This document shows, one piece after another, positions 18,687 through 54,048 of a stretch of DNA of 57,297 bases. Under the pieces are notes generated by a model that saw only the letters and a list, made by a program, of their open reading frames with translations, searched no databases and was not told the DNA's origin. The stretch lies in IMG/VR virus record IMGVR_UViG_3300006930_000006. One strand, 5' to 3'. Both the position numbers and the translations under genes were made by a program. Each line of letters starts with the position of its first letter. Positions within the stretch are counted from its first letter, which is position 1. This DNA comes from an uncultured virus (IMG/VR IMGVR_UViG_3300006930_000006). Its lineage: Duplodnaviria; Heunggongvirae; Uroviricota; Caudoviricetes.

Positions 18687-20489
18687 ATGACAGATTTACG
18701 AGTAACCGAATTAGATTTTGATACAATCAAGACCAACTTAAAGACTTTTCTAAAGTCAAAGCCAGAGTTTACTGATTATAACTTTGAAGGTGCTGGTCTA
18801 TCAGTATTATTAGATGCCTTAGCATATAATACCCACTATAATGCAATAAATGCTAATATGATTGGAAGTGAGATGTTTCTTGATACTGCACAGAATCGTT
18901 CAAGTATCGTTTCAAGAGCAAAAGAATTAAATTACTTACCTACGAGTAAGACAGCGTCTGTAGCAACATTAAGGGTAACCTTTGTGCCAGTTGGTAGTCC
19001 AAATCCTGCTGTAATTAGTAAGAATACTCAATTTAATGCAATACTTAATAACAAGAATTATCTATTCATTACAACGGAAGCCTATAACGTAGTCCCAGTC
19101 AATGATGTTTATACTGCTGATATTGATGTATATCAAGGTGGATATGCAACTTATAATTATGTTGTAGATAGTCTAAATCCTAACCAAAGATTTATTATAC
19201 CAAACAAAGATGTTGATACAAGATTCCTTTCTGTAAAGGTAAAAGATACTTCGGTGTCGGTAACTGATAGAGAATACTTATATAGTTCAAATGTGGTAAA
19301 AGATGCTATTACATCTACTTCGGAAGTTTATTATCTACAAGAGACATTTGATGGTTATTTTGAAGTAAAGTTTGGGGATGACGTTCTAGGTAGAAATCCA
19401 ACTGATGGATCTATTATAACAATAGAGTATTTAATTACTGCTGGTGCAGATGCTAATGGTATTCAAAGCTTTACGAGATTATCTACTGTAGCAGGAACAA
19501 CCAATGTTTCTATAACAGTTTTAAGTGGATCTGCTGGTGGTGCTGATATAGAGGATATAGAAAGCATTAGAACTATGGCAACAAAGTTCTATCAATCACA
19601 AAACAGGGCATTAACTACCGATGATTATTCAGTGATTATTAAAAAGAATTATCCAATCATTAAAGATGCAGTAGTCTGGGGTGGAGAAGATAATCTACCA
19701 ACTCCTGTATATGGTAAAGTATTCGTATCATTAGAACCAAACTCTGGGTATTATCTAAATGAAGTAACCAAAGCACAGATCCTAGCAGATATTAGATCTT
19801 CTTATGCGGTGGTAACTGTAAAACCAGAATACGTTGCACCAGAATATCTTTATATCAATGTAAGTTCTAATGTAAATTATAACTCAAGTGAAACAATCAA
19901 GACAGTAAGTCAATTACAGACCTTGGTAAGTTCTGCAATTACAACTTTCTTTGCTGACTTTGTGGATATCTTTAATTCAAGTGTTATTTTATCAAAGTTA
20001 AGTTCTGCTATAGACGATGCAGATACTTCAATTACTGGTAATACAACTGGAATAAGTCTTGATTACAGACTATCACCAACTACCAATGTCGCAACAAGAT
20101 ATACCGTAGACTTTGCAAATCCGGTAAAACCTGGTTTATTAACAAGTACAACTTTTAGTGTCAGTGGTGTTTCTGGATATTATTTTAGAGATGTACCAAC
20201 TGGGGTTGCTCCATATAGCACTGGTGTTATTCAAATCGTAAGATCCATTGGTGGAACTATTGAAGTATTAGATTCTGCAGCTGGAACCATTGATTATACA
20301 ACTGGTTACGTAGTATTAACTAACTTTATTACAAGTGGATTTACGGGCAGTTATATAACAATAACGAGTACCTTACTTCCAAGTGTTACCGAAGTTAATC
20401 TAACCAGTATAAATAACGAAGTAATCACGAACGGACGCAATCAGATATTAAAGTTGAATAATATCGTAGCCAATGTAGTAGCAAAATAA
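18687..20489 (+). CDS. 6: Baseplate wedge subunit (gp6)
   Basis: LDFDTIKTNLK, FTDYNFEGAGLSVLLDALAYNTHY, FGDDVLG, QNRALTTDDY, WGGED, YGKVF. Confidence 0.96.
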   Translation: MTDLRVTELDFDTIKTNLKTFLKSKPEFTDYNFEGAGLSVLLDALAYNTHYNAINANMIGSEMFLDTAQNRSSIVSRAKELNYLPTSKTASVATLRVTFVPVGSPNPAVISKNTQFNAILNNKNYLFITTEAYNVVPVNDVYTADIDVYQGGYATYNYVVDSLNPNQRFIIPNKDVDTRFLSVKVKDTSVSVTDREYLYSSNVVKDAITSTSEVYYLQETFDGYFEVKFGDDVLGRNPTDGSIITIEYLITAGADANGIQSFTRLSTVAGTTNVSITVLSGSAGGADIEDIESIRTMATKFYQSQNRALTTDDYSVIIKKNYPIIKDAVVWGGEDNLPTPVYGKVFVSLEPNSGYYLNEVTKAQILADIRSSYAVVTVKPEYVAPEYLYINVSSNVNYNSSETIKTVSQLQTLVSSAITTFFADFVDIFNSSVILSKLSSAIDDADTSITGNTTGISLDYRLSPTTNVATRYTVDFANPVKPGLLTSTTFSVSGVSGYYFRDVPTGVAPYSTGVIQIVRSIGGTIEVLDSAAGTIDYTTGYVVLTNFITSGFTGSYITITSTLLPSVTEVNLTSINNEVITNGRNQILKLNNIVANVVAK

Positions 20490-20490
20490 A

Positions 20491-22284
20491 ATGGAAACTG
20501 AGTTCTACAATCTTAAGACGGTATTTGATAGGGTTATACCAGAATTTATAAAGGATGACTCAACCAGTCTTTTCACGACTTTTCTAGAATACTATTATGA
20601 ATATCTAGATACTGTTGGTAATGCCGGTGAAAGAACTTATAATTTATTACAATACCGTGATATAGATGAGACAGATCTTACAGAATTCTTAACCTATTTT
20701 AGAAAGACTTATATTGATATTCTACCAGTAAACTATCTGGCAGATTCTTCTTTACTTATTAAAAATATCAAATCCCTATATGGAAGCAAAGGCACTGAGA
20801 AGTCCTTTAAGTTTCTATTCCGTGTATTATATAATCAAGATGTCAACTTCTATTATCCAAAAGATGATTTATTAAGACCATCAGACGGTAAGTGGGTAGT
20901 TGAAACTTCATTAAAATGCACGAATAACACAGGTAACTTTGGTGACCTAGTAAATAGACAGATAACAGGTCTAACTTCTGGAGCTACTGGTATTGTTGAA
21001 TATGCAGTTAGCTATGAGTTAGAAGGTGTAAAAATTGCAGAATTCTTTCTAAGTTCTGTGAAGGGTACATTTCTACCAGGTAGACTAATCGCTGGAACCA
21101 GCGTTGATGGAACAGTTATACAAGAACGTTCGTTTGAAGTTATATCTGGTCTTACTGTGGTAAATGGTGGATCTGGTTATAAGAAAGGTGATAAGGTTTA
21201 TATAGTTACCAACGATTCCAATATGAGTATTCTTGGATTTGGTGTAGTAACTGCATTGCAATCTTCACCGATTAGTTCTATTGGGGTTCTTAATGGTGGT
21301 AGTAATTATAATGGCAACTACAAGATAGTAACCACATTAAACAATCTACCAATGAATTCTGTATATAATAACCAAGTTTTACTTAATCAGGTTGTATCTG
21401 GTCTAACTTCTACCGATATTGATTATCTAAACTTACCAATGAATTCTACTATAACCTCAACTATTATAAATGGAACTGGGGATATTGTATCTATCATAGA
21501 CAATCCTGGATCCACTGGTAACGGTGCAACTGCTGTGGTTGATGTTGTTGATAATGCTGGTGCTATTATAACAGTAAAACTAATATCAGCTGGTAAGTCC
21601 TATGAGACTCCAACAGCAACGGTAACTTCTGCAACTGGAACTGGTGCTATCTTATCCGTATCAGGTGGAACTTCTGCAATATCAAGTGTAGTTGTACAAA
21701 ATCCAGCACCTATTCTGACCGGTAATATAAATGATTATACAACGGATACAATAGGTTATGGTAATAATAATGCCACATTTTCCTTTACAACATCAGCATT
21801 AGTATCATATCCCGGTAAATGGTTAACCGATGATAGTAAATTAGATTCTACAAAGAAACTACAAGATAACGAATACTGGCAAGAATACTCTTATGTATTG
21901 AAATCTGAGTTAGATACTGCAACTTTCGCAGATGCAGTTAAGCCAACAGTGCATCCTGCTGGTATGAAGATGTTTGGTGAAGTAAATTACACTCGTGTTT
22001 TATATACGCCAATAACATTAGAATCTATTACTGGTAATACAGATCTTATATTCTTTACAAGTAATGTAAATCTATATCCAGTTGAGATAAACTACTTTAC
22101 AGAAATTGAAACGCAAATAGAAAGACCAACTTATCTTTATGAATTAACAATAGACGAAGTTATACAGATATATGGTCCTGATATTGCTACTATTGCAACA
22201 TTGACACCAGGAACAGCAGTTACTACTCCAACTATGGATAGTATGCAACCGAACATTAGAGGTAATTATATTTCTATTACATAG
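20491..22284 (+). CDS. Baseplate wedge initiator (gp7-like)
   Basis: IPEFI, FLEYYYEYL, LYGSKGTEKSFKFLFRVLY, LQDNEYWQEYSYVLKS, VHPAGMKMFG; lies between gp6 and gp8. Confidence 0.85.
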   Translation: METEFYNLKTVFDRVIPEFIKDDSTSLFTTFLEYYYEYLDTVGNAGERTYNLLQYRDIDETDLTEFLTYFRKTYIDILPVNYLADSSLLIKNIKSLYGSKGTEKSFKFLFRVLYNQDVNFYYPKDDLLRPSDGKWVVETSLKCTNNTGNFGDLVNRQITGLTSGATGIVEYAVSYELEGVKIAEFFLSSVKGTFLPGRLIAGTSVDGTVIQERSFEVISGLTVVNGGSGYKKGDKVYIVTNDSNMSILGFGVVTALQSSPISSIGVLNGGSNYNGNYKIVTTLNNLPMNSVYNNQVLLNQVVSGLTSTDIDYLNLPMNSTITSTIINGTGDIVSIIDNPGSTGNGATAVVDVVDNAGAIITVKLISAGKSYETPTATVTSATGTGAILSVSGGTSAISSVVVQNPAPILTGNINDYTTDTIGYGNNNATFSFTTSALVSYPGKWLTDDSKLDSTKKLQDNEYWQEYSYVLKSELDTATFADAVKPTVHPAGMKMFGEVNYTRVLYTPITLESITGNTDLIFFTSNVNLYPVEINYFTEIETQIERPTYLYELTIDEVIQIYGPDIATIATLTPGTAVTTPTMDSMQPNIRGNYISIT

Positions 22285-38934: not shown

Positions 38935-39564
38935 ATGCCAGTTAATAACATTTTTCAAAGTGGTAAAGGAATCGGTGCTACACCAGAGCAAAATCTGGTG
39001 GATGACCTCGCTAGTGAATTAATAAAGATTACCGGTCACGATATTATTTATGCTCCACGAACTCTCGTAAAGGAAGATAAGATCTTCGGTGAAGATGTTT
39101 TGAGTGCATTTAATAAGTACTGGACAATAGAAGCTTATGTAGATTCTAAAGATGGTTATGGTACCAGTGATTTATTAACAAAGTTTGGTTTAGATATACC
39201 AGATGTTTTTGATTTGACGGTAGCAAGACGTAGGTTTGAAGAGATAACAGAGAACTATATACCAAGACCAGGTGATATAATCTACTTTCCAGTAGGTAAA
39301 GCACTTTTTGAAATCAAGTATGTTGAAGATGAAAGTCCGTTTTATAGTTTAAGTAAGCAAAGTCAATATAAGTTCAAGTGTGAGTTATTTACATACAGCC
39401 AAGAGACTCTTAATACTGGTAATCAAGATGTTGATAATATACAGAAAACATTTGAGAATCTAAACAATACTTTAAACGATGCCTTTGCAGAAAATACACC
39501 GATACAAGAAGAAGGTGATGTTATTCTTGATTTTGATGAGAATAATCCATTTGGAGAAGTATAA
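38935..39564 (+). CDS. 14: Neck protein (gp14)
   Basis: EQNLVDDL..E.IKITG, YAPR, IFGED, KFGL, PGDIIYFP, FEIKYVE, CELFTYS, NPFGE. Confidence 0.95.
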   Translation: MPVNNIFQSGKGIGATPEQNLVDDLASELIKITGHDIIYAPRTLVKEDKIFGEDVLSAFNKYWTIEAYVDSKDGYGTSDLLTKFGLDIPDVFDLTVARRRFEEITENYIPRPGDIIYFPVGKALFEIKYVEDESPFYSLSKQSQYKFKCELFTYSQETLNTGNQDVDNIQKTFENLNNTLNDAFAENTPIQEEGDVILDFDENNPFGEV

Positions 39565-40358
39565 TGTTTCAAACTTTTTATTTTGCTACAACTAGAAGAA
39601 TCGTATCTGCCTTTGGTACTGTATTCAATAATATATCTATTGTAAGAACGGATGCTAATGGTAATGAAGTTCAAACTATCAAGGTTCCATTATCTTATGG
39701 ACCAAAGCATAAATGGTTAAGAGCAATTCAAGAGCAAGCACAAAGAAGACAGATCGGTGGTAAGACCAACATTAGAATGCTTTTGCCTAGAATGTCTTTT
39801 GAAATGACTGGTATGGAATATGATGCTAGCCGTAAGTTAACTACTATGATTAGTAATACTGACAAGATACTTCAACCACAAGAACTTACAAGTATGTTGA
39901 AGCAACTTAATCCGATACCATATAAGTTTAACTTTGCCTTGAATATAATGAGTAAGAATCTAGATGATGGTTTACAGATTATAGAGCAGATTCTACCATA
40001 CTTTACACCAAATCTATCAGTAACCTTAAAAGATATACCGCAATTAGGTATTACTAGGGATCTTCAGATTATCTATAAATCTATTACTCACGAGGATTCT
40101 TATGATGGTGAATTGGCAACAACACGTATGATAACCTGGAAGTTGGAGTTTACTGTATTAGGTCATTTATATCCACCAATTACAGACGCAAAAATTATTA
40201 AGAAAGTTATAGCTAATATCTACAACGATCCAGCTATGCAAAATAAGATTGAAGAATTAGATACTTACGTAGAGCAATATAAAATAGACCAAGGAATCGT
40301 AGATCTTACGGATCCTGACTCTATTTTTGACGAAGCAATAACAGATATTATAGAATAG
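39564..40358 (+). CDS. 15: Tail sheath stabiliser / tail terminator (gp15)
   Basis: FGTVFNNI, KVPLSYGPK, LPRMSFE, DGLQIIEQILPYFTP. Confidence 0.95.
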   Translation: MFQTFYFATTRRIVSAFGTVFNNISIVRTDANGNEVQTIKVPLSYGPKHKWLRAIQEQAQRRQIGGKTNIRMLLPRMSFEMTGMEYDASRKLTTMISNTDKILQPQELTSMLKQLNPIPYKFNFALNIMSKNLDDGLQIIEQILPYFTPNLSVTLKDIPQLGITRDLQIIYKSITHEDSYDGELATTRMITWKLEFTVLGHLYPPITDAKIIKKVIANIYNDPAMQNKIEELDTYVEQYKIDQGIVDLTDPDSIFDEAITDIIE

Positions 40359-40372
40359 AAAACGGAGTTTAT

Positions 40373-40843
40373 ATGATACCAAACCAAAAGTTAGGACAAG
40401 TTTTAGATATTGCCGAAGATATCGGTAGAGAACTAAAACCTCTAATGAATATCACACCACGGGAAGAGAAAATCATTGATGTAGAACCAGAATCCACCCC
40501 TGGTAATATAGACGATGACTTTGATTATGCAAGAAAGCAACTAAAGAACGTGATAGATACCGGTAATCAAAATATGCAAGAACTTATGCAACTTGCAGCT
40601 ATGACACAAGAACCAAAGATCTATGAGCAGATTACTAAAATGATGAAAGAGATAGTAACTGCCAATGAAAAGTTGATACAACTTTATAAAACACGTAAGG
40701 ATGCTACCAGCAAGTTCCCTACTCCAGAAAATGGTTCTGTACAAAATATAACCAATCAGACTTTACTTGTTGGATCTACCAAGGAAGTGCTTGAAATGAT
40801 TGGTAATAAAAAGAAAGATACATCCGAAGATATAAAGGTCTAA
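40373..40843 (+). CDS. 16: Terminase small subunit (gp16)
   Basis: DDFDYARKQL, EPKIYE, TNQTLLVGSTKE; precedes gp17. Confidence 0.9.
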   Translation: MIPNQKLGQVLDIAEDIGRELKPLMNITPREEKIIDVEPESTPGNIDDDFDYARKQLKNVIDTGNQNMQELMQLAAMTQEPKIYEQITKMMKEIVTANEKLIQLYKTRKDATSKFPTPENGSVQNITNQTLLVGSTKEVLEMIGNKKKDTSEDIKV

Positions 40844-40859
40844 CGGTAGGAGACGGAGG

Positions 40860-42437
40860 ATGAAAGAATTCAAAGGTCCACAGTATTATCTTAACAATCC
40901 AAGACTTAAAGCTGAGAACGTTAAGGTTAACTTTACTCAAGAGCAAATAGACGAACTTATCAGGTGTAAAACTGATATTAAGTACTTTGCTAATAATTAT
41001 GTAAAGATTATTAACCTGGATAAGGGTCTAATGAATATCAATCTTTATCCATACCAAGAAAGACTTGTCCAGAGTTACTACGATAACAGATTTACGATAG
41101 TTCTATCCCCAAGACAAACTGGTAAGTCTACCAGTGGTCTGATTTATCTATTACACGCAGTTATATTCAATGATTATCACGAATGCGCAATCCTTGCCAA
41201 TAAACACGCAATCGCATTGGAACTGCTTGGACGTATTAAACTGATGTATGAAAATCTACCTTTCTGGATGCAGATCGGTATCGTGGAATGGAATAAGAGT
41301 TCTATTGAGCTGGAAAATGGTTCTAAGATTACTGCAAGTGCTACAAGTGCTTCCGCAGTGCGTGGGCGTTCAATCTCAAGTGTGCTCCTTGATGAGTTCT
41401 CTTTTATTTCCAATGACTTAGCTCAAGAGTTTATAAGTTCCGTATTCCCTACTATCTCATCTGGTAAGAATTCAAAGATTATTATATCATCTACACCAAA
41501 TGGACTTAATCATTTTTATCAGATGTGGACGGATGCCGAGCAAGGTAATTCTTTATTCTGTCCAATTAAGGTTAACTATTGGGACGTTCCTGGTAGAGAT
41601 GACGCCTGGAAAGAAAAGATGCTTAAAACGATGTCCTTAGATAAGTTTGAGCAAGAATACAATAATGCTTTTCTTGGATCTTGTGATACATTGATATCTG
41701 CAACTAAACTACGTAATTTGGTAAATGGTAAACCAGAGTATCAGAAAGATGGTCTTCGTGTATATGAATACCCTAAGACAGATGAAGAAAGCAAAAAAAG
41801 TAATGTTTATATGCTAACCGTGGATTGCTCAGAGGGTAAAGGACAGGACTATAATGCGTTTAGTGTGATAGATATTACAGAGTTCCCGATGCGTCAGGTT
41901 GCAACTTTTTATGATAATACAATGAGTTATTTACAGTTTCCAGATGTTATCTATGAAGTTGCCAGAAAGTTCAATAATGCTTATGTATTATTAGAGACCA
42001 ATTCGGTTGGACAAGAGGTTGGGCATATACTTTTACACGAGTGTGAATATGAAAATATAATCTTTACGGAAAAAGGTGTAATGGGTATTAGAACCAATAA
42101 GAACGTAAAGAAGATTGGTTGTATAAATCTAAAGGAACTAATAGAGCAAGATAAGTTAATTCTAACCGATGAAAATACCATAACAGAACTAAACAACTTT
42201 ATTAGATATGGTTATACCTATTGTGCAGATGATGGACACCACGACGACTTGGTAATGGGTCTAGTTCTATTCGCCTGGTTCTCTTCAAAAGATGATTTCA
42301 AGGATATGACGGATCTTAGTTTTAGAAACACTATCAATACTAACTTTGATGACTTTATGCCAGTAACTTATATTGATAATGGGGTAGAAGATAAAGATAC
42401 TAATAGATTGTATAATGATACTTCATTGATAATATAA
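40860..42437 (+). CDS. 17: Terminase large subunit (gp17)
   Basis: YLNNPRLK, PRQTGKST, LLDEF, SSTPNG, DCSEG..D, HDDLVM. Confidence 0.97.
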   Translation: MKEFKGPQYYLNNPRLKAENVKVNFTQEQIDELIRCKTDIKYFANNYVKIINLDKGLMNINLYPYQERLVQSYYDNRFTIVLSPRQTGKSTSGLIYLLHAVIFNDYHECAILANKHAIALELLGRIKLMYENLPFWMQIGIVEWNKSSIELENGSKITASATSASAVRGRSISSVLLDEFSFISNDLAQEFISSVFPTISSGKNSKIIISSTPNGLNHFYQMWTDAEQGNSLFCPIKVNYWDVPGRDDAWKEKMLKTMSLDKFEQEYNNAFLGSCDTLISATKLRNLVNGKPEYQKDGLRVYEYPKTDEESKKSNVYMLTVDCSEGKGQDYNAFSVIDITEFPMRQVATFYDNTMSYLQFPDVIYEVARKFNNAYVLLETNSVGQEVGHILLHECEYENIIFTEKGVMGIRTNKNVKKIGCINLKELIEQDKLILTDENTITELNNFIRYGYTYCADDGHHDDLVMGLVLFAWFSSKDDFKDMTDLSFRNTINTNFDDFMPVTYIDNGVEDKDTNRLYNDTSLII

Positions 42438-42440
42438 ATA
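42433..42440 (+). promoter_or_regulatory. Late promoter driving a short non-coding transcript
   Basis: TATAAATA overlapping the gp17 stop; predicted +1 (42446) is the first base of a hairpin. Confidence 0.7.
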
Positions 42441-42445
42441 GTATT

Positions 42446-42520
42446 ATAGCACTTTTCTCCTCCGGTGCTATATTCTACGGTGGCTAGGTCTTCCCCTCCG
42501 TTTACTTGGCCACCGACTTT
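42446..42520 (+). ncRNA. Candidate ~75-nt two-hairpin small RNA with anti-SD (CCUCCG) loops
   Basis: Hairpin 1 ATAGCAC/GTGCTAT with loop TTTTCTCCTCCG; hairpin 2 CGGTGGCTAGGT/ACTTGGCCACCG with loop CTTCCCCTCCGTTT; no ORF; GC-rich in an AT-rich context. Confidence 0.6.
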
Positions 42521-42552
42521 ATAAACTTGGGATATTGTGATTTTTTAGATAT

Positions 42553-42560
42553 TATAAATA
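42553..42560 (+). promoter_or_regulatory. Late promoter for tnpB, followed by a 5'-UTR hairpin (42567-42599)
   Basis: TATAAATA; GAGG..AGATTC-TGGAC-GAATCT..CCTC. Confidence 0.75.
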
Positions 42561-42628
42561 CTATACGAGGATAAAGATTCTGGACGAATCTATACCCTCT
42601 AAACAACACCAATAAAGGAACTATTGAT

Positions 42629-43783
42629 TTGTCTGACGGTATTTATATAAGAACTTCTAAACATAGTCTAATGTTATCTAACACTGGTAAAATAGAAATG
42701 CTAGATTGTATTTTTATTGACTATGAGAATCAACTAAGAATGTATATCCAAGATATATTAGAAGAAAAAATACCATTAAAATCATTATTATCTTCACCTT
42801 TACTACCAGGTTATACTATACATCATTCTGGTTGGAAGCAGATAATATACAAGCAAGCTTCTGAAATTGTTAGATCTAATATAAACTATACTAGGAATAG
42901 AACCTTTAAAAGATACAAGAAGGTATATAGTTACTTCTTAAAAAATGGTAGACAATATAAGTTTACCTCAAAACACTTTAAAGAATTAAATATAAACTAT
43001 AAGAAAAGAATTAAAATAAATCTAAAGAATATCAATATAAGCTTGGATTCTAGAGTTTTTAATATACAAAATAATTTTCTTCTTATTAAAACCCCATATT
43101 CTAAATCTATAAAATTTCCTGTACAATTATATAACTATATGAAAAAGTATAATAATTGTAAAAGAAAGAATACCGTACGACTATCAAATAAAAATGGTAA
43201 GTATTATGTCAACTATTTTTGGGAATGTAAAACACCAGATAAGAAGACTACTGGTAAAAAGATAGGAATTGATATAGGTTATAATAAGTTAATTAGTACT
43301 TCTGAAGGTGAATTCTATGGCAAAGAATTAAAAGATCTTTATAATAGAATTGCAAAGAAGCAAAGAGGTAGTAGAAGATATGAAAAACTACTTAAATATA
43401 AAACAGATGAAATTAATAGATTATGCAAGAAATTAGTAAGTGATACAGAATTACATACATTATATGTAGAAGATCTTAAATTAGTTAAGAATAATACTAA
43501 GTTATCTACAAATCTTATGAATAAAATGCAATACTGGTCTTATAGACAAGTATTAGAAAAATTAGGTTTCCTTAGTGAAATGGAAGGTTTCCAGGTTACT
43601 AAGGTTGCTCCAGCATATACAAGCCAAAGATGCTCGTGTTGTGGGGTTATAATGAAAACCAATAGAAAGGGGGAGTACTATAAGTGCTCTTCGTGTGGTG
43701 TGGAAATGGATGCTGATTATAATGCAGCTATTAATATATTACAAAAAGGTGATATGCAGCCTTTGCTTTCGGAAATAAATTAA
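42629..43783 (+). CDS. tnpB: TnpB (IS200/IS605-family RNA-guided nuclease), standalone
   Basis: RuvC-I GIDIG, RuvC-II VEDL, TSQRCSCCG...CSSCG zinc ribbon, RuvC-III DADYNAAINI; no tnpA nearby. Confidence 0.93.
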   Translation: MSDGIYIRTSKHSLMLSNTGKIEMLDCIFIDYENQLRMYIQDILEEKIPLKSLLSSPLLPGYTIHHSGWKQIIYKQASEIVRSNINYTRNRTFKRYKKVYSYFLKNGRQYKFTSKHFKELNINYKKRIKINLKNINISLDSRVFNIQNNFLLIKTPYSKSIKFPVQLYNYMKKYNNCKRKNTVRLSNKNGKYYVNYFWECKTPDKKTTGKKIGIDIGYNKLISTSEGEFYGKELKDLYNRIAKKQRGSRRYEKLLKYKTDEINRLCKKLVSDTELHTLYVEDLKLVKNNTKLSTNLMNKMQYWSYRQVLEKLGFLSEMEGFQVTKVAPAYTSQRCSCCGVIMKTNRKGEYYKCSSCGVEMDADYNAAINILQKGDMQPLLSEIN

Positions 43784-43801
43784 CGCCGATTTTTTAGTAA
43801 G

Positions 43802-43809
43802 CATAAATA
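43802..43809 (+). promoter_or_regulatory. Variant late promoter (CATAAATA) for gp18
   Basis: Same GATTTTTTAG-N4 upstream context as the tnpB promoter. Confidence 0.6.
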
Positions 43810-43902
43810 TAGACGAAGATATATAAAGTTTTTCTATATCATAAGAAATTGTGCCTCTGAAATGAGGTACTTTTGCAAAAGTAAAAAGGAGTCATAAAAT
43901 AA

Positions 43903-45528
43903 ATGGTTACACAATTATCTCCTGGTGTTTTAGTAACAGAAACAGACCAATCAGCTTACGTTCCAGCTGTCGCTACCTCTAATGGTGGTACAGTATTGGA
44001 AGCTGCTTGGGGACCTGTAGATGTTATCACAACGATTGATAGCGAGCAAAACCTCGTTTCTCAATTCGGTAAACCAGGAAGTTCAAATTATGAAGGTTGG
44101 TTTGCAGCAGCTAGTTTCTTAGCTTATGCTACTAATCTTAAATTAGTGCGCGTAGTAGGAACTGGTGCTTTGAATGCTACGGCATCTGCTTCAGCTGGCA
44201 CTACTGGTCAACTAATTAAAAATCAAGACGAATATGAAAATACTTCGTTTAGTACATCAACAGATCTTTGGATTGCAAAATATCCAGGTGCTCTAGGTAA
44301 TTCTATTCAAGTTGCTTGGTGCGATACTGCTGGATTTGATGTAGTAGATAGTTCTGGTGATTATACTTGGGCATATAGAGACCTATTTGATAGTGCTCCA
44401 GATGCTTCACAATTCCATATTGTAGTAGTTGATGTTTTGGGTAATATCACTGGTACTGCTGGAACCGTATTAGAAACTTTTGACGATGTTTCTTTAACAT
44501 CTACAGCAAAACGCTTTGATGGTTCTACAAATTATGTAGTTGAAAGATTAAAAACTAACTCAGCATATATCAATGTTGCTAAAGCTTCATTGTTAACTGG
44601 TGCTTCTTCTGGGGTAACTTTAGCAGGTGGTGCCAATGGTGCTACTGCAGCTAATGCAGACTTAGAAGCTGGTTGGGCATTATTCCAATCAGTTGAAGAT
44701 GTTGACGTAACTACCTTATTTGTTGGTGGTGCATCTTCTACAGTTGGTAAATGGGTAATTGATAATATCGCAGAAGTAAGAAAAGATTGCGTTGTTTTCG
44801 TATCACCTGCTAAGACAGACTGCGTAAACGTAAGTGTTATTAGTACAATTTTAACCAATGTAAAAGCGACAAGAACCGTATATGGTAATTCTAACTATGC
44901 ATTTATGGATAGTACTTGGAAATATCAATACGATCGTTATGCAGATACTTATCGTTGGGTTCCACTCAATGGTGATATTGCTGGTTTAATGGCAAAAACT
45001 TCTAACGATGTAGATGCTTGGTTTAGTCCAGCAGGTCTAAATCGTGGTCGTATTAAGAACGTTGTTAAGTTTGCATATACACAAGCACAGACTACAAGAG
45101 ATGAATTATACAAATCACAAATCAATCCTTGTGTTATCTTCCCTAATGAAGGTGCTATACTATATGGAGATAAAACATTACAAACAAAACCTAGTGCTTT
45201 TGACCGTATCAATGTAAGAATGTTATTTATTACATTAGAAAAATCAATCGCGATAGCTTCAAAATATGTGTTGTTTGAGTTCAATGACGAAATAACAAGA
45301 CGCTCATTTATAAATACGGTAGAACCTTTCTTAAGAGATGTTCAAGGTCGTAGAGGTGTTGTTGATTATCTCGTAATATGCGATGAAACCAATAATACTG
45401 GTGAAGTTATAGATCGTAATGAATTCGTTGCTAATTTGTTTATTAAGCCAACTCGTTCAATCAACTTTATTAAACTAAACTTCATTGCTACCCGTACTGG
45501 TGTATCTTTTGAAGAAATAGTAGCTTAA
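43903..45528 (+). CDS. 18: Tail sheath protein (gp18)
   Basis: SPGVLVTETD, WGP, FGKP, KYPGALGN, WFSPAGLNRG, GDKTL, SAFDRINVR, FEFND, IKPTRSINFI. Confidence 0.98.
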   Translation: MVTQLSPGVLVTETDQSAYVPAVATSNGGTVLEAAWGPVDVITTIDSEQNLVSQFGKPGSSNYEGWFAAASFLAYATNLKLVRVVGTGALNATASASAGTTGQLIKNQDEYENTSFSTSTDLWIAKYPGALGNSIQVAWCDTAGFDVVDSSGDYTWAYRDLFDSAPDASQFHIVVVDVLGNITGTAGTVLETFDDVSLTSTAKRFDGSTNYVVERLKTNSAYINVAKASLLTGASSGVTLAGGANGATAANADLEAGWALFQSVEDVDVTTLFVGGASSTVGKWVIDNIAEVRKDCVVFVSPAKTDCVNVSVISTILTNVKATRTVYGNSNYAFMDSTWKYQYDRYADTYRWVPLNGDIAGLMAKTSNDVDAWFSPAGLNRGRIKNVVKFAYTQAQTTRDELYKSQINPCVIFPNEGAILYGDKTLQTKPSAFDRINVRMLFITLEKSIAIASKYVLFEFNDEITRRSFINTVEPFLRDVQGRRGVVDYLVICDETNNTGEVIDRNEFVANLFIKPTRSINFIKLNFIATRTGVSFEEIVA

Positions 45529-46085: not shown

Positions 46086-46107
46086 GGGAGGGTCTTCGGA
46101 TCCTCCC
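46086..46107 (+). repeat. C(UUCG)G hairpin, copy 1 (terminator/stability element)
   Basis: GGGAGGGTC-TTCG-GATCCTCCC. Confidence 0.8.
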
Positions 46108-47025: not shown

Positions 47026-47045
47026 GGAGGATCTTCGGATCCTCC
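47026..47045 (+). repeat. C(UUCG)G hairpin, copy 2
   Basis: GGAGGATC-TTCG-GATCCTCC, near-identical to 46086-46107. Confidence 0.8.
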
Positions 47046-47048
47046 TCT

Positions 47049-47056
47049 TATAAATA
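47049..47056 (+). promoter_or_regulatory. Late promoter for gp20
   Basis: TATAAATA. Confidence 0.8.
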
Positions 47057-48897: not shown

Positions 48898-49062
48898 ATG
48901 GATAATATAAATACTATTATGAAACAAGTATTTAAGGGACAAAATCCCGACAATAGTTTAGTTACTAAAGAATTAGCAAATAGAGCATTATCTGAGATTG
49001 ATAATATAAGAATGCAAGTATCGGATAATCTTCTAAAGGATATTACAAATGAAGCTTCTTAA
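48898..49062 (+). CDS. Second small prohead core-like protein (54 aa, not in ORF track)
   Basis: AGGTGAG SD; MDNINTIMKQVFKG...IDNIRMQVSDNLLKDI aligns with the preceding ORF; contains TATAAATA (48906-13). Confidence 0.7.
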   Translation: MDNINTIMKQVFKGQNPDNSLVTKELANRALSEIDNIRMQVSDNLLKDITNEAS

Positions 49063-52388: not shown

Positions 52389-52423
52389 GGGGATCCGGTA
52401 TGAAAATATCGGATCCTTTTTTT
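52389..52423 (+). terminator. Intrinsic terminator after gp23
   Basis: GGATCCGGTAT-GAAA-ATATCGGATCC followed by T7. Confidence 0.9.
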
Positions 52424-52462: not shown

Positions 52463-53950
52463 ATGGAAAACATAGATAACATAATAGCAGAATACAAGTC
52501 CGGCAAGACCATATCTCAACTCAATAAGATATATGGAATACCACGCAAGACTATCACAAAAATCCTTATTGACGGAAAGGTTCTAATGAGGCCAGAGGGA
52601 TTATTCACAGATTCTGATGGAATTGATAAGACCGAAATCAAGATATCAAAAGATGCCTTATATCAGATGCGTGTAGTAGATGCCAAATCATACTCACAGA
52701 TTGCAAAAGAAACGGGTCTCAGTGTATGGTTAGTGGAGGACAGGTGTAAGTACTACGGCTTCCCCGGACAAGTGTATAGACACGCATATAATTACAGAGA
52801 GGTGCCTTCTAAAGATGTATTATATGATTTGTATCACAATAAATTACAATCTCAATCAGATATAGCCAGAACTTATAAAACGACACCTTCTACAGTAAAG
52901 AAGTGGTTGGTAAAAAATGATATACAATTAAGAGCACATAAAGAAGTTATTGGTAAGGCTATGAAAAAATACGCTGATGACTTCAAAGAAGTTAATGGTT
53001 ATTATCCACAGGCAGACCCAGAATTAGTAAAGCGTTCATTACAGACACGTTTAGATAGATTTGGTACTACATTTATTCAACGAGATCCAAACAAAGAATA
53101 TACAGAAGACAAAGTTCGTAATTATCTTAATAGTATTGGTGGTAATTTTGTAAAAAGTGATTATTCTATACTTGGTAATAAAGAACTAGATATGGTTGAC
53201 CACGACAAAAAAATAGCTGTAGAATACTGTGGTTTATACTGGCATCACGAATTGACTAGATGTAATGATGTTTATCATTGGGAAAAGTATAAAAAGTGTC
53301 AAGAAAAAGGTTATAGACTAATTACCATCTTTGAAGACGAGTGGTTACTTAAACAAAATCAAGTAAAGAACTTTTTATTTTCTATTGTCGGTACTTCAGA
53401 AGTTGTATATGCTAGAAAGTGTGCAATAAAACAACTTGAAAAGTATCAAGCTAATAAGTTCTTTGAAGATAATCATATACAAGGTGAAGCAAATAGTATC
53501 CTTTATGCTTATGGTTTAGAATACAATGGACAACTAATTGGTGTTATATCTTTTGGTTTACATCATAGAAACAATGATAAGTCTATTATCGTATTGAATA
53601 GATTAGCATTTGTACACGGTATTACTGTTATTGGTGGTGCTTCTAGATTATTGCAAGCTTTCGTAAAAGAATATGGTTCTAAGTATAAAAAGATAATCAG
53701 CTGGTCAGATAATAGATGGTCTACGGGTAATGTTTATGAAAAACTTGGTTTTATTAAAGAAGTAGAATATAAGCGTGATTATTCATACTTTGTAGAAGGA
53801 ACTAAGCAATTAAGATTTCCTAAGCAATCAATGACTAGAAAAGCTCTAGGTTGTAAACCTGGTGAGACTGAGCATCAAAAAGCATTAGAACTTGGTTATT
53901 TACGTGTTTGGGATTGTGGTAAAATTAGATGGACTTATAACCTTGTATAA
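52463..53950 (+). CDS. Hef-like free-standing homing endonuclease (HTH repeats + Vsr-like nuclease + conserved C-terminal domain)
   Basis: ATG at 52463; tandem HTH-like segments; ELDMVD..KIAVEYCGLYWH, LITIFEDEW, GGASRLL, SDNRW..GNVYEKLGF, WDCG. Confidence 0.8.
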   Translation: MENIDNIIAEYKSGKTISQLNKIYGIPRKTITKILIDGKVLMRPEGLFTDSDGIDKTEIKISKDALYQMRVVDAKSYSQIAKETGLSVWLVEDRCKYYGFPGQVYRHAYNYREVPSKDVLYDLYHNKLQSQSDIARTYKTTPSTVKKWLVKNDIQLRAHKEVIGKAMKKYADDFKEVNGYYPQADPELVKRSLQTRLDRFGTTFIQRDPNKEYTEDKVRNYLNSIGGNFVKSDYSILGNKELDMVDHDKKIAVEYCGLYWHHELTRCNDVYHWEKYKKCQEKGYRLITIFEDEWLLKQNQVKNFLFSIVGTSEVVYARKCAIKQLEKYQANKFFEDNHIQGEANSILYAYGLEYNGQLIGVISFGLHHRNNDKSIIVLNRLAFVHGITVIGGASRLLQAFVKEYGSKYKKIISWSDNRWSTGNVYEKLGFIKEVEYKRDYSYFVEGTKQLRFPKQSMTRKALGCKPGETEHQKALELGYLRVWDCGKIRWTYNLV

Positions 53951-53953
53951 ATA
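53946..53953 (+). promoter_or_regulatory. Late promoter for the tRNA
   Basis: TATAAATA ending 6 nt before the tRNA 5' G. Confidence 0.75.
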
Positions 53954-53958
53954 CCCAC

Positions 53959-54048
53959 GGGCACTTGTGTGAGTGGTTGAAACAGATAGTCTTGAAAACT
54001 ATTAGACCAGCGATGGTCTCGCAAGTTCAAATCTTGCAGTGTCCGCCA
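53959..54048 (+). tRNA. tRNA-Ser (anticodon UGA), encoded CCA
   Basis: Acceptor GGGCACT/AGTGTCC, G discriminator + CCA; anticodon arm ATAGT-CTTGAAA-ACTAT; long variable arm AGACCA..TGGTCT; T-arm GCAAG-TTCAAAT-CTTGC. Confidence 0.95.

Follow-up and report, generated by a model that had tools for sequence, protein, structure and literature searches.

Predicted plus-strand twin hairpins with open anti-Shine-Dalgarno loops downstream of the large terminase gene of an uncultured T4-like phage

Two adjacent hairpins directly downstream of the large terminase gene gp17 of an uncultured T4-like phage (IMG/VR record IMGVR_UViG_3300006930_000006) constitute what, judging from the folding predictions, is a real, orphan, plus-strand RNA-forming module with two open loops complementary to Shine-Dalgarno (SD) sequences. 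The window, as we call the whole stretch of DNA analyzed, comprises 57,297 nucleotides (nt) and is part of a metagenomic contig of 94 kb, about 52% complete and with 34% GC. The hairpins form the 3' untranslated tail of gp17 (40860-42437, plus strand; Terminase_6N and Terminase_6C domains; stop codon TAA at 42435-42437). We tentatively read them as a lineage-specific late anti-SD module whose RNA would influence the translation of terminase, in cis or in trans, and give this reading somewhat less than an even chance. What was computed is the fold and its strand, the exposure of the loops, the position of the promoter and the complementarity.

Hairpin 1 (42445-42472, plus strand) has a stem of 8-9 bp and a 12-nt loop (42453-42464; TTTTCTCCTCCG, or UUUUCUCCUCCG as RNA). 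Hairpin 2 (42478-42515, plus strand) has a 12-bp stem with 7 G-C and 2 G-U pairs and a 14-nt loop (42490-42503; CTTCCCCTCCGTTT, or CUUCCCCUCCGUUU as RNA), and is followed directly by ACTTT. Each loop displays CCUCC. The twin hairpins, their shared loop motif and the ACTTT behind them had been pointed out in a first-pass annotation of this DNA, and both the sequence and the folding confirmed them. The 76-nt plus-strand region folds at -28.7 kcal/mol (z-score -6.24), an energy equalled by none of 200 shuffled sequences. Each hairpin is also stable by itself: hairpin 1 folds at -8.7 kcal/mol (z -4.19; equalled by 0 of 200 shuffles) and hairpin 2 at -18.3 kcal/mol (z -4.44; 1 of 200), and no hairpin with more G-C pairs than hairpin 2 was listed on either strand of the genome. 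The CCUCC bases of both loops are unpaired with a probability of at least 0.98 in sequence contexts of 75, 195 and 451 nt. Two small open reading frames (ORFs) across the hairpins, a plus-strand GTG frame of 19 codons lacking a ribosome site and a minus-strand GTG frame of 2 codons, were judged non-coding by eye.

On the minus strand the same region folds at -21.1 kcal/mol (z -2.32; equalled by 3 of 200 shuffles), and hairpin 2 is reduced to 7 bp (z -1.72) as its two G-U pairs (42485-42508 and 42487-42506) turn into C-A. Because hairpin 2 pairs G-U on the plus strand but C-A on the minus strand, the selected form appears to be the plus-strand RNA. This bears on an alternative, suggested in the first-pass annotation for CsrA/RsmA, in which a minus-strand RNA is made from a T4-type late-promoter box, TATAAATA, at 42647-42640, and its loops containing GGA or GGAGG would sponge CsrA-type proteins or ribosomes. 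Such a box does exist on the minus strand at 42640-42647, and the minus-strand loops would read CGGAGGAGAAAA and AAACGGAGGGGAAG. We nevertheless consider a sponge highly improbable. To the weak fold and the two C-A mismatches in hairpin 2 can be added that the three minus-strand boxes in 57 kb are not above chance, that nearby minus-strand ORFs of at least 60 amino acids are all short and nested inside plus-strand genes, and that no CsrB/Rsm-type Rfam family matched at E-values up to 10.

The loop motif TTCYCCTCCG occurs exactly at 42455-42464 and 42491-42500, and the stems that carry it are unrelated. The two loops are identical at 9 of 10 positions, an agreement found in 597 of 20000 shuffles when the composition of each loop was kept (about 3%) and in 14 of 20000 (0.07%) at genome composition. 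Such a match on unrelated stems suggests that the loop sequence is under constraint. Could the constraint act on the DNA itself? Two palindromes with a repeated 10-bp core might serve as protein-binding sites in packaging, recombination or repression, and the direct repeats of TTCYCCTCCG do lie 36 bp apart, each within an inverted repeat, beside the terminase genes. However, the arms of the two palindromes are unrelated, the two imperfections of the long palindrome are G-T, which pair as G-U only in the plus-strand RNA, and no other copy is found in the 94-kb genome, so that a DNA-level role seems very unlikely to us.

A TATAAATA box at 42433-42440 on the plus strand overlaps the gp17 stop codon, as previously annotated. 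With the spacing of T4 late promoters, which we take to place the last A of the box at -6, the predicted transcription start (+1) is 42446. This coordinate agrees with the first-pass annotation, where it was called the first base of hairpin 1; it is the second, a correction of 1 nt. Another TATAAATA box (42553-42560, plus strand) leads into the downstream gene tnpB. Its predicted +1 is one base before hairpin 3 (42567-42599, plus strand; z -3.25, 0 of 200 shuffles), which starts at the predicted +2. The window holds 18 such boxes on the plus strand and 3 on the minus strand; for 9 of the 18, a gene start follows within 100 nt, as it does for only 9% of positions. None of the other 16 plus-strand boxes has a comparably stable hairpin starting at +1 to +3, but a tRNA also pairs from its first base: the box at 53946-53953 overlaps the stop codon of an upstream 516-amino-acid ORF, and its +1 (53959) is the first base of a tRNA-Ser(UGA) gene (53959-54048). 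Since this layout is the same as at the twin hairpins, the phage does seem, from the sequence, to set late boxes immediately before structured RNA genes.

We looked for partners of the two loops among the ribosome sites of the phage. The best predicted one is the gp17 start region (UAGGAGACGGAGG-AUG-AA, 40847-40864, plus strand), which contains the sole GGAGG ribosome site among the 51 genes tested in the window and is not structured itself (z 0.02). The sequences previously given for this region (TAGGAGACGGAGG-ATG, 40847-40862) and for the gp16 ribosome site (AAACGGAG, 40360-40367, plus strand) were correct; the gene following a further candidate site, AACGGAG (10667), had been called gp26 and carries the Pfam domain T4_baseplate. 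Duplex energies with the gp17 site are -15.7 kcal/mol for loop 1, which pairs CGGAGGAuGAAA with 11 of its 12 bases, and -14.9 kcal/mol for loop 2. When both loops bind, loop 2 takes the upstream part; the energetically best arrangement is the reverse of the one first proposed, in which loop 1 covered the upstream and loop 2 the downstream half of the site. When the energies of both loops were summed over each start region, gp17 ranked first of 51 (-29.4 kcal/mol vs -19.2 for the next gene), gp16 third and gp18 23rd. In a two-site scan of 147 gene starts from the entire genome, in which the sites could not overlap, gp17 again came first (-25.9 kcal/mol), and the gp17 start region is the best site for loop 1 on the entire 94-kb plus strand. 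The gp16 site offers an 8-nt complement to loop 2 (CUCCGUUU). As a control of specificity we kept the CCUCC core and shuffled the loop flanks in 300 trials per loop. The pairing of loop 2 with the gp16 site, which ranks second of 51, beats 97% of these shuffles and is the sole fit that stands out.

Both pentamers involved in these pairings are scarce. CCTCC and GGAGG occur 10 times on the two strands of the window against 36.7 +/- 5.4 expected, a depletion of about 3.7-fold. On the plus strand, two of the five CCUCC are in the loops described here, two in the stems of UUCG hairpins (46102 and 47041) and one is coding, and the five GGAGG comprise the gp17 ribosome site, two in UUCG-hairpin stems and two within coding sequence. 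According to this tally, the sole exposed non-coding CCUCC and the sole GGAGG ribosome site sit at the two ends of gp17. The ribosome sites of most genes in the window are weak ones of 4-5 nt, or are lacking. The UUCG hairpins are intergenic C(UUCG)G tetraloop hairpins (46086-46107 and 47026-47045) with GGAGG/CCUCC stems that hold 4 of the 10 pentamers; no U-run follows either of them, and a late box at 47049 directly adjoins the second.

If the module regulates terminase translation, the plus strand would be transcribed into an RNA with two stable hairpins whose large loops leave CCUCC open. Two late routes could lead to it. The first would be the 3' tail of a gp15-gp16-gp17 message, which would carry the module because there is no terminator between gp17 and the hairpins. 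The second would be the module's own late promoter overlapping the gp17 stop, whose transcripts would have hairpin 1 at their very 5' end. The loops would pair with SD sequences, their strongest partner being the unusual double site of gp17, AGGAGACGGAGG, which abuts the AUG; loop 2 would also fit the gp16 site, and with these sites masked the translation of terminase would be held down. In cis, the 3' tail would loop round to the start region in the way described for icaR; in trans, the module would act in the manner of the cuckoo and RsaE-type small RNAs. It is the existence of the RNA, its ends and its effect on translation that we infer here. According to a 2010 review, T4 had yielded no functionally characterized small regulatory RNA that acts in trans, and the genomes of its relatives might suggest candidates (PMC3014915). 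A late anti-SD RNA in the terminase tail would be such a T4-type candidate and would link the packaging enzyme to control at the RNA level. It would also offer a natural test case for long-range anti-SD/SD folding, and a clean one, as the genome around it has hardly any of either motif.

The same loops might have broader targets. A late-made decoy RNA could bind strong GGAGG sites in general, shutting down host messages while sparing those of the phage, whose genome is purged of GGAGG (five on the plus strand, one of them at a gene start). If this were true, terminase, as the single gene with a strong SD, would be deliberately throttled, and an RNA-only shutoff of host translation would be tied to packaging control. 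We think it quite unlikely.

Several results weigh against a dedicated regulator of terminase, the first of them concerning the targets. The runner-up in the two-site scan (-24.4 kcal/mol vs -25.9 for gp17) is an unrelated sialyltransferase-like gene located in the contig outside the window, and this gene rather than gp17 also provides the single best site for loop 2. In the control, 221 of 300 core-kept shuffles of each loop still ranked gp17 first, and 14% (loop 1) and 36% (loop 2) of them bound gp17 as well as the natural loop. The complementarity is real, yet for the most part it is what SD and anti-SD sequences show generically; beyond this, a coincidence of position is left. Of the targeting first proposed, then, gp17 stands as the best predicted partner in the genome, and specificity for terminase does not rise above the core-kept control.

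The evidence for a separate transcript has limits as well. The TATAAATA box by itself is just modestly enriched in the window (21 vs 13.35 expected; 2 of 100 shuffles reach 21). A terminator scan reported no terminator-like site near the hairpins and hence no defined 3' end. The 33 nt that follow hairpin 2 (42516-42548, plus strand) form no terminator hairpin and fold at 0 kcal/mol despite ending in a run of six U (42541-42546). Nor does either hairpin pass as an intrinsic (Rho-independent) terminator, for which we sought a GC-rich stem, a loop of 3-8 nt and a U-rich tail directly after the stem: adequate stems are combined with loops of 12 and 14 nt and with a tail, ACUUUAUA, in which 4 of 8 bases are U. 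In view of this lack of a terminator, a separate small RNA would have to be processed, or trimmed as far as hairpin 2. Failing that, the module would end the terminase message and open a transcript that continues into tnpB. The first-pass annotation had proposed a discrete small RNA that throttles terminase; the plus-strand structure, the anti-SD loops and the well-placed box of that proposal hold, and the discrete RNA and the terminase-specific targeting are not supported.

The relatives, finally, leave the module isolated. A BLAST search of a phage collection with 41900-44400 gave no match, and the only other copy (loci L004, L008 and L097) is 100% identical and thus offers no covariation, either in the stems or between loop and ribosome site. 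The closest non-self terminases are about 50% identical and the closest TnpB proteins about 49%. We processed 78 of 80 loci of terminase relatives (L038 and L088 were dropped as truncated), 66 of which had a downstream ORF, and compared the gp17-gp18 gaps of 39 hand-picked loci, which included almost every short-gap locus and a selection of those with long gaps. The short gaps (53-111 nt) have a late box resembling TATAAATA, exact in many, and the long ones (about 240-780 nt) hold a small ORF of 54-82 amino acids, except for one locus that has none. The hairpins were found in none of these 39 gaps and any CCTCC in only one. In their gp17 start regions, GGAGG is present in 1 of 33, and GGAG or GAGG in 12 of 33. 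These comparisons are suggestive of hairpins and a strong gp17 site both peculiar to this lineage, a single observation; the co-occurrence of strong SD and anti-SD loops thus comes from one lineage (n = 1). A covariance model of the hairpins (model R1), run on 91 sources and 533,824 bases of the relatives' loci, matched the window itself and nothing else. A viral scan for both loop words returned nine stretches, namely one identical contig and eight without a twin open-loop hairpin. A pattern scan of metagenomes returned at least 118 stretches; in 80 of these loci the best score of model R1 was 14.6 bits (E 0.38), and none of eight metagenome matches inspected folded into a twin hairpin. Apart from the identical contig, we take the matches listed in the two scans to be chance hits. 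In the leader after the second box (42553-42590), ATTCTGGA stands about as far from TATAAATA as it does in the gp18 leaders of the terminase relatives L013, L023 and L065, which may be a trace of an ancestral gp18 leader, or chance.

An explanation that dispenses with any pairing role of the loops has to be considered at this point. The hairpins could be passive RNA structures, that is, a 3' decay barrier or stabilizer of the terminase message together with a protective 5' stem-loop for the late transcript of tnpB and gp18. Hairpins 1 and 3 sit exactly where +1/+2 is predicted from the two late boxes of the gap, which would suit such a function. So would the other intergenic hairpins without a U-run (the UUCG ones above) and the outcome of the core-kept control, which the loops do not exceed in target specificity. 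Yet the stabilizer hairpins of this genome have 4-nt UUCG loops, not loops of 12-14 nt. A passive structure would also leave without a role the 9/10 loop motif common to two unrelated stems, whose pentamer is otherwise purged from the genome, and hairpins of this kind stand at just 2 of the 18 late boxes. We regard passive structure as possible, though doubtful.

The insertion of tnpB raises a further possibility. A solo IS607-type TnpB of 384 amino acids (42629-43783, plus strand; TTG start; Cas12f1-like_TNB and OrfB_IS605 domains) lies between gp17 and gp18, 191 nt from the former and 119 nt from the latter; it provides the context of the RNA module and is outside it. The element is classified as IS607-type because a serine recombinase gene (Resolvase domain) lies just upstream of tnpB in the two genomic relatives tested. 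The hairpins could then be cargo or a scar of the insertion: a promoter-flanked cassette that serves the mobile element, for example by insulating tnpB from incoming transcription or translation, or one without service. The gp17-gp18 distance of 1465 nt, holding three promoter-like boxes and tnpB, exceeds the gaps of the relatives, and on either side of the hairpins lies one copy of a 33-nt direct repeat (42412-44 and 42532-64; 73% identity) that includes the box. In T4-type phages, the shuffling of promoter/stem-loop cassettes as units is known. In addition, 42561-42590, which overlaps hairpin 3, reads LYEDKDSGRI in frame +1 and is identical at 8 of 10 positions to residues 22-31, near the N-terminus, of the IS607 TnpA of a Treponema metagenome-assembled genome; this would be a weak hint that the left part of the insertion reaches at least the second promoter. 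The match is itself weak (E 0.008 without and 0.077 with composition correction), and as a single stretch of 10 amino acids it was set aside as too weak to build a tnpA remnant on. Moreover, the flanking repeat also resembles a third late box, at 48906, and may therefore be just an extended promoter consensus. No such hairpins occur upstream of tnpB in nine loci of TnpB relatives, in which model R1 finds nothing either, and the left ends of two IS607 relatives have 17-20% GC and no CCTCC. IS607-type elements use a serine recombinase and are not known to use hairpin ends. An origin as insertion cargo is thus unlikely in our judgment.

Two roles within the TnpB element itself were also tried and rejected. 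As the left end of a TnpB transposon (IS200/IS605/IS607), the hairpins would be expected upstream of the nine relatives and in the two IS607 left ends, where they are absent. TnpB guide RNAs and their scaffold derive from the 3' end of tnpB, and the hairpins lie 113-184 nt 5' of the gene; the 3' flanks of the TnpB relatives could not be aligned by eye. The invariant columns of 24 aligned TnpBs are kept in this protein, which is present as a single copy in the 94-kb contig. Where the relatives have their ATG, this gene has TAT, and its reading frame begins at a TTG four codons before that position. The succession of GATTTTTTAG, an ATAAATA box and ACGA(G/A)GATA is found both just before tnpB (42539-42575) and just after it (43789-43820), and may represent a promoter segment duplicated or recombined at the insertion.

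The genes around the hairpins are, in order, gp15 (39564-40358), the small terminase gene gp16 (40373-40843), gp17, tnpB, the sheath gene gp18 (43903-45528) and then gp19. Compared with the genome record over the same span, the window has 7 single-base differences (19346-20793 and 46319), none of them near the hairpins. Elsewhere, a hairpin formed by GGGGATCCG and CGGATCCTT and followed by a T-run (52389-52418) is terminator-like, although it encloses the ATG (52400) of the 516-amino-acid ORF upstream of tRNA-Ser, which has helix-turn-helix and Mom-like/GNAT matches.

Among known systems, the anti-SD module proposed here most resembles the cuckoo RNAs. In a search of 42420-42640 (221 nt searched), the Rfam family ar14 (RF02344, "cuckoo") matched 42437-42547 on the plus strand with 28.9 bits (E 6e-4) and aligned both loops; it went unreported in a 6-kb scan and in the search of the phage's own genome. 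Cuckoo RNAs of Rhizobiales and Rhodobacterales are described as 2-4 adjacent hairpins with CCUCCUCCC loops, some of them co-transcribed with the upstream gene (PMC4615179). Like the ar14 members (RSs0680a-d/CcsR, NfeR1), the phage module has adjacent hairpins, in this case two (z -6.24), with variable stems and C/U-rich anti-SD loops. Unlike them, it shares with CCUCCUCCC only CUCCUCC and CCCCUCC, scores below the gathering cut-off of 58.8 bits, has no counterpart to the third (terminator) helix of the model and occurs as a single copy without relatives in a phage of 34% GC instead of an alphaproteobacterial chromosome. Because of the score below the cut-off, the missing terminator helix, the incomplete loop motif and the lack of a match in the wider scans, the likeness to cuckoo is, as far as sequence comparison goes, one of design and not of membership. 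The C-rich-loop small RNAs of Firmicutes, RNAIII and RsaE/RoxS, likewise pair unpaired C-rich motifs with ribosome-binding sites (PMC4615179). They share with the module an unpaired C-rich motif complementary to the SD, but differ in architecture, size and carrier, and gave no Rfam match at E-values up to 10 in 42420-42640.

Pairing between the two ends of a message has been described for the 3' and 5' untranslated regions of icaR (PMC3868564), and in Bacillus subtilis anti-SD-like sequences hundreds of nucleotides downstream pair with the ribosome site (PMC12697547). The phage arrangement is similar in having an anti-SD motif downstream of a strong SD on what is predicted to be the same message; it differs in that the motif is doubled, displayed in dedicated open loops 1.6 kb from the start and provided with a promoter of its own, and the folding is so far a predicted one. 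GC-rich hairpins between late genes, beside promoter boxes, also recall the intergenic stability hairpins and promoter/stem-loop cassettes (PeSLs) of T4; those, however, have tetraloops or serve as terminators, whereas the two hairpins downstream of gp17 have loops of 12-14 nt with a shared anti-SD motif.

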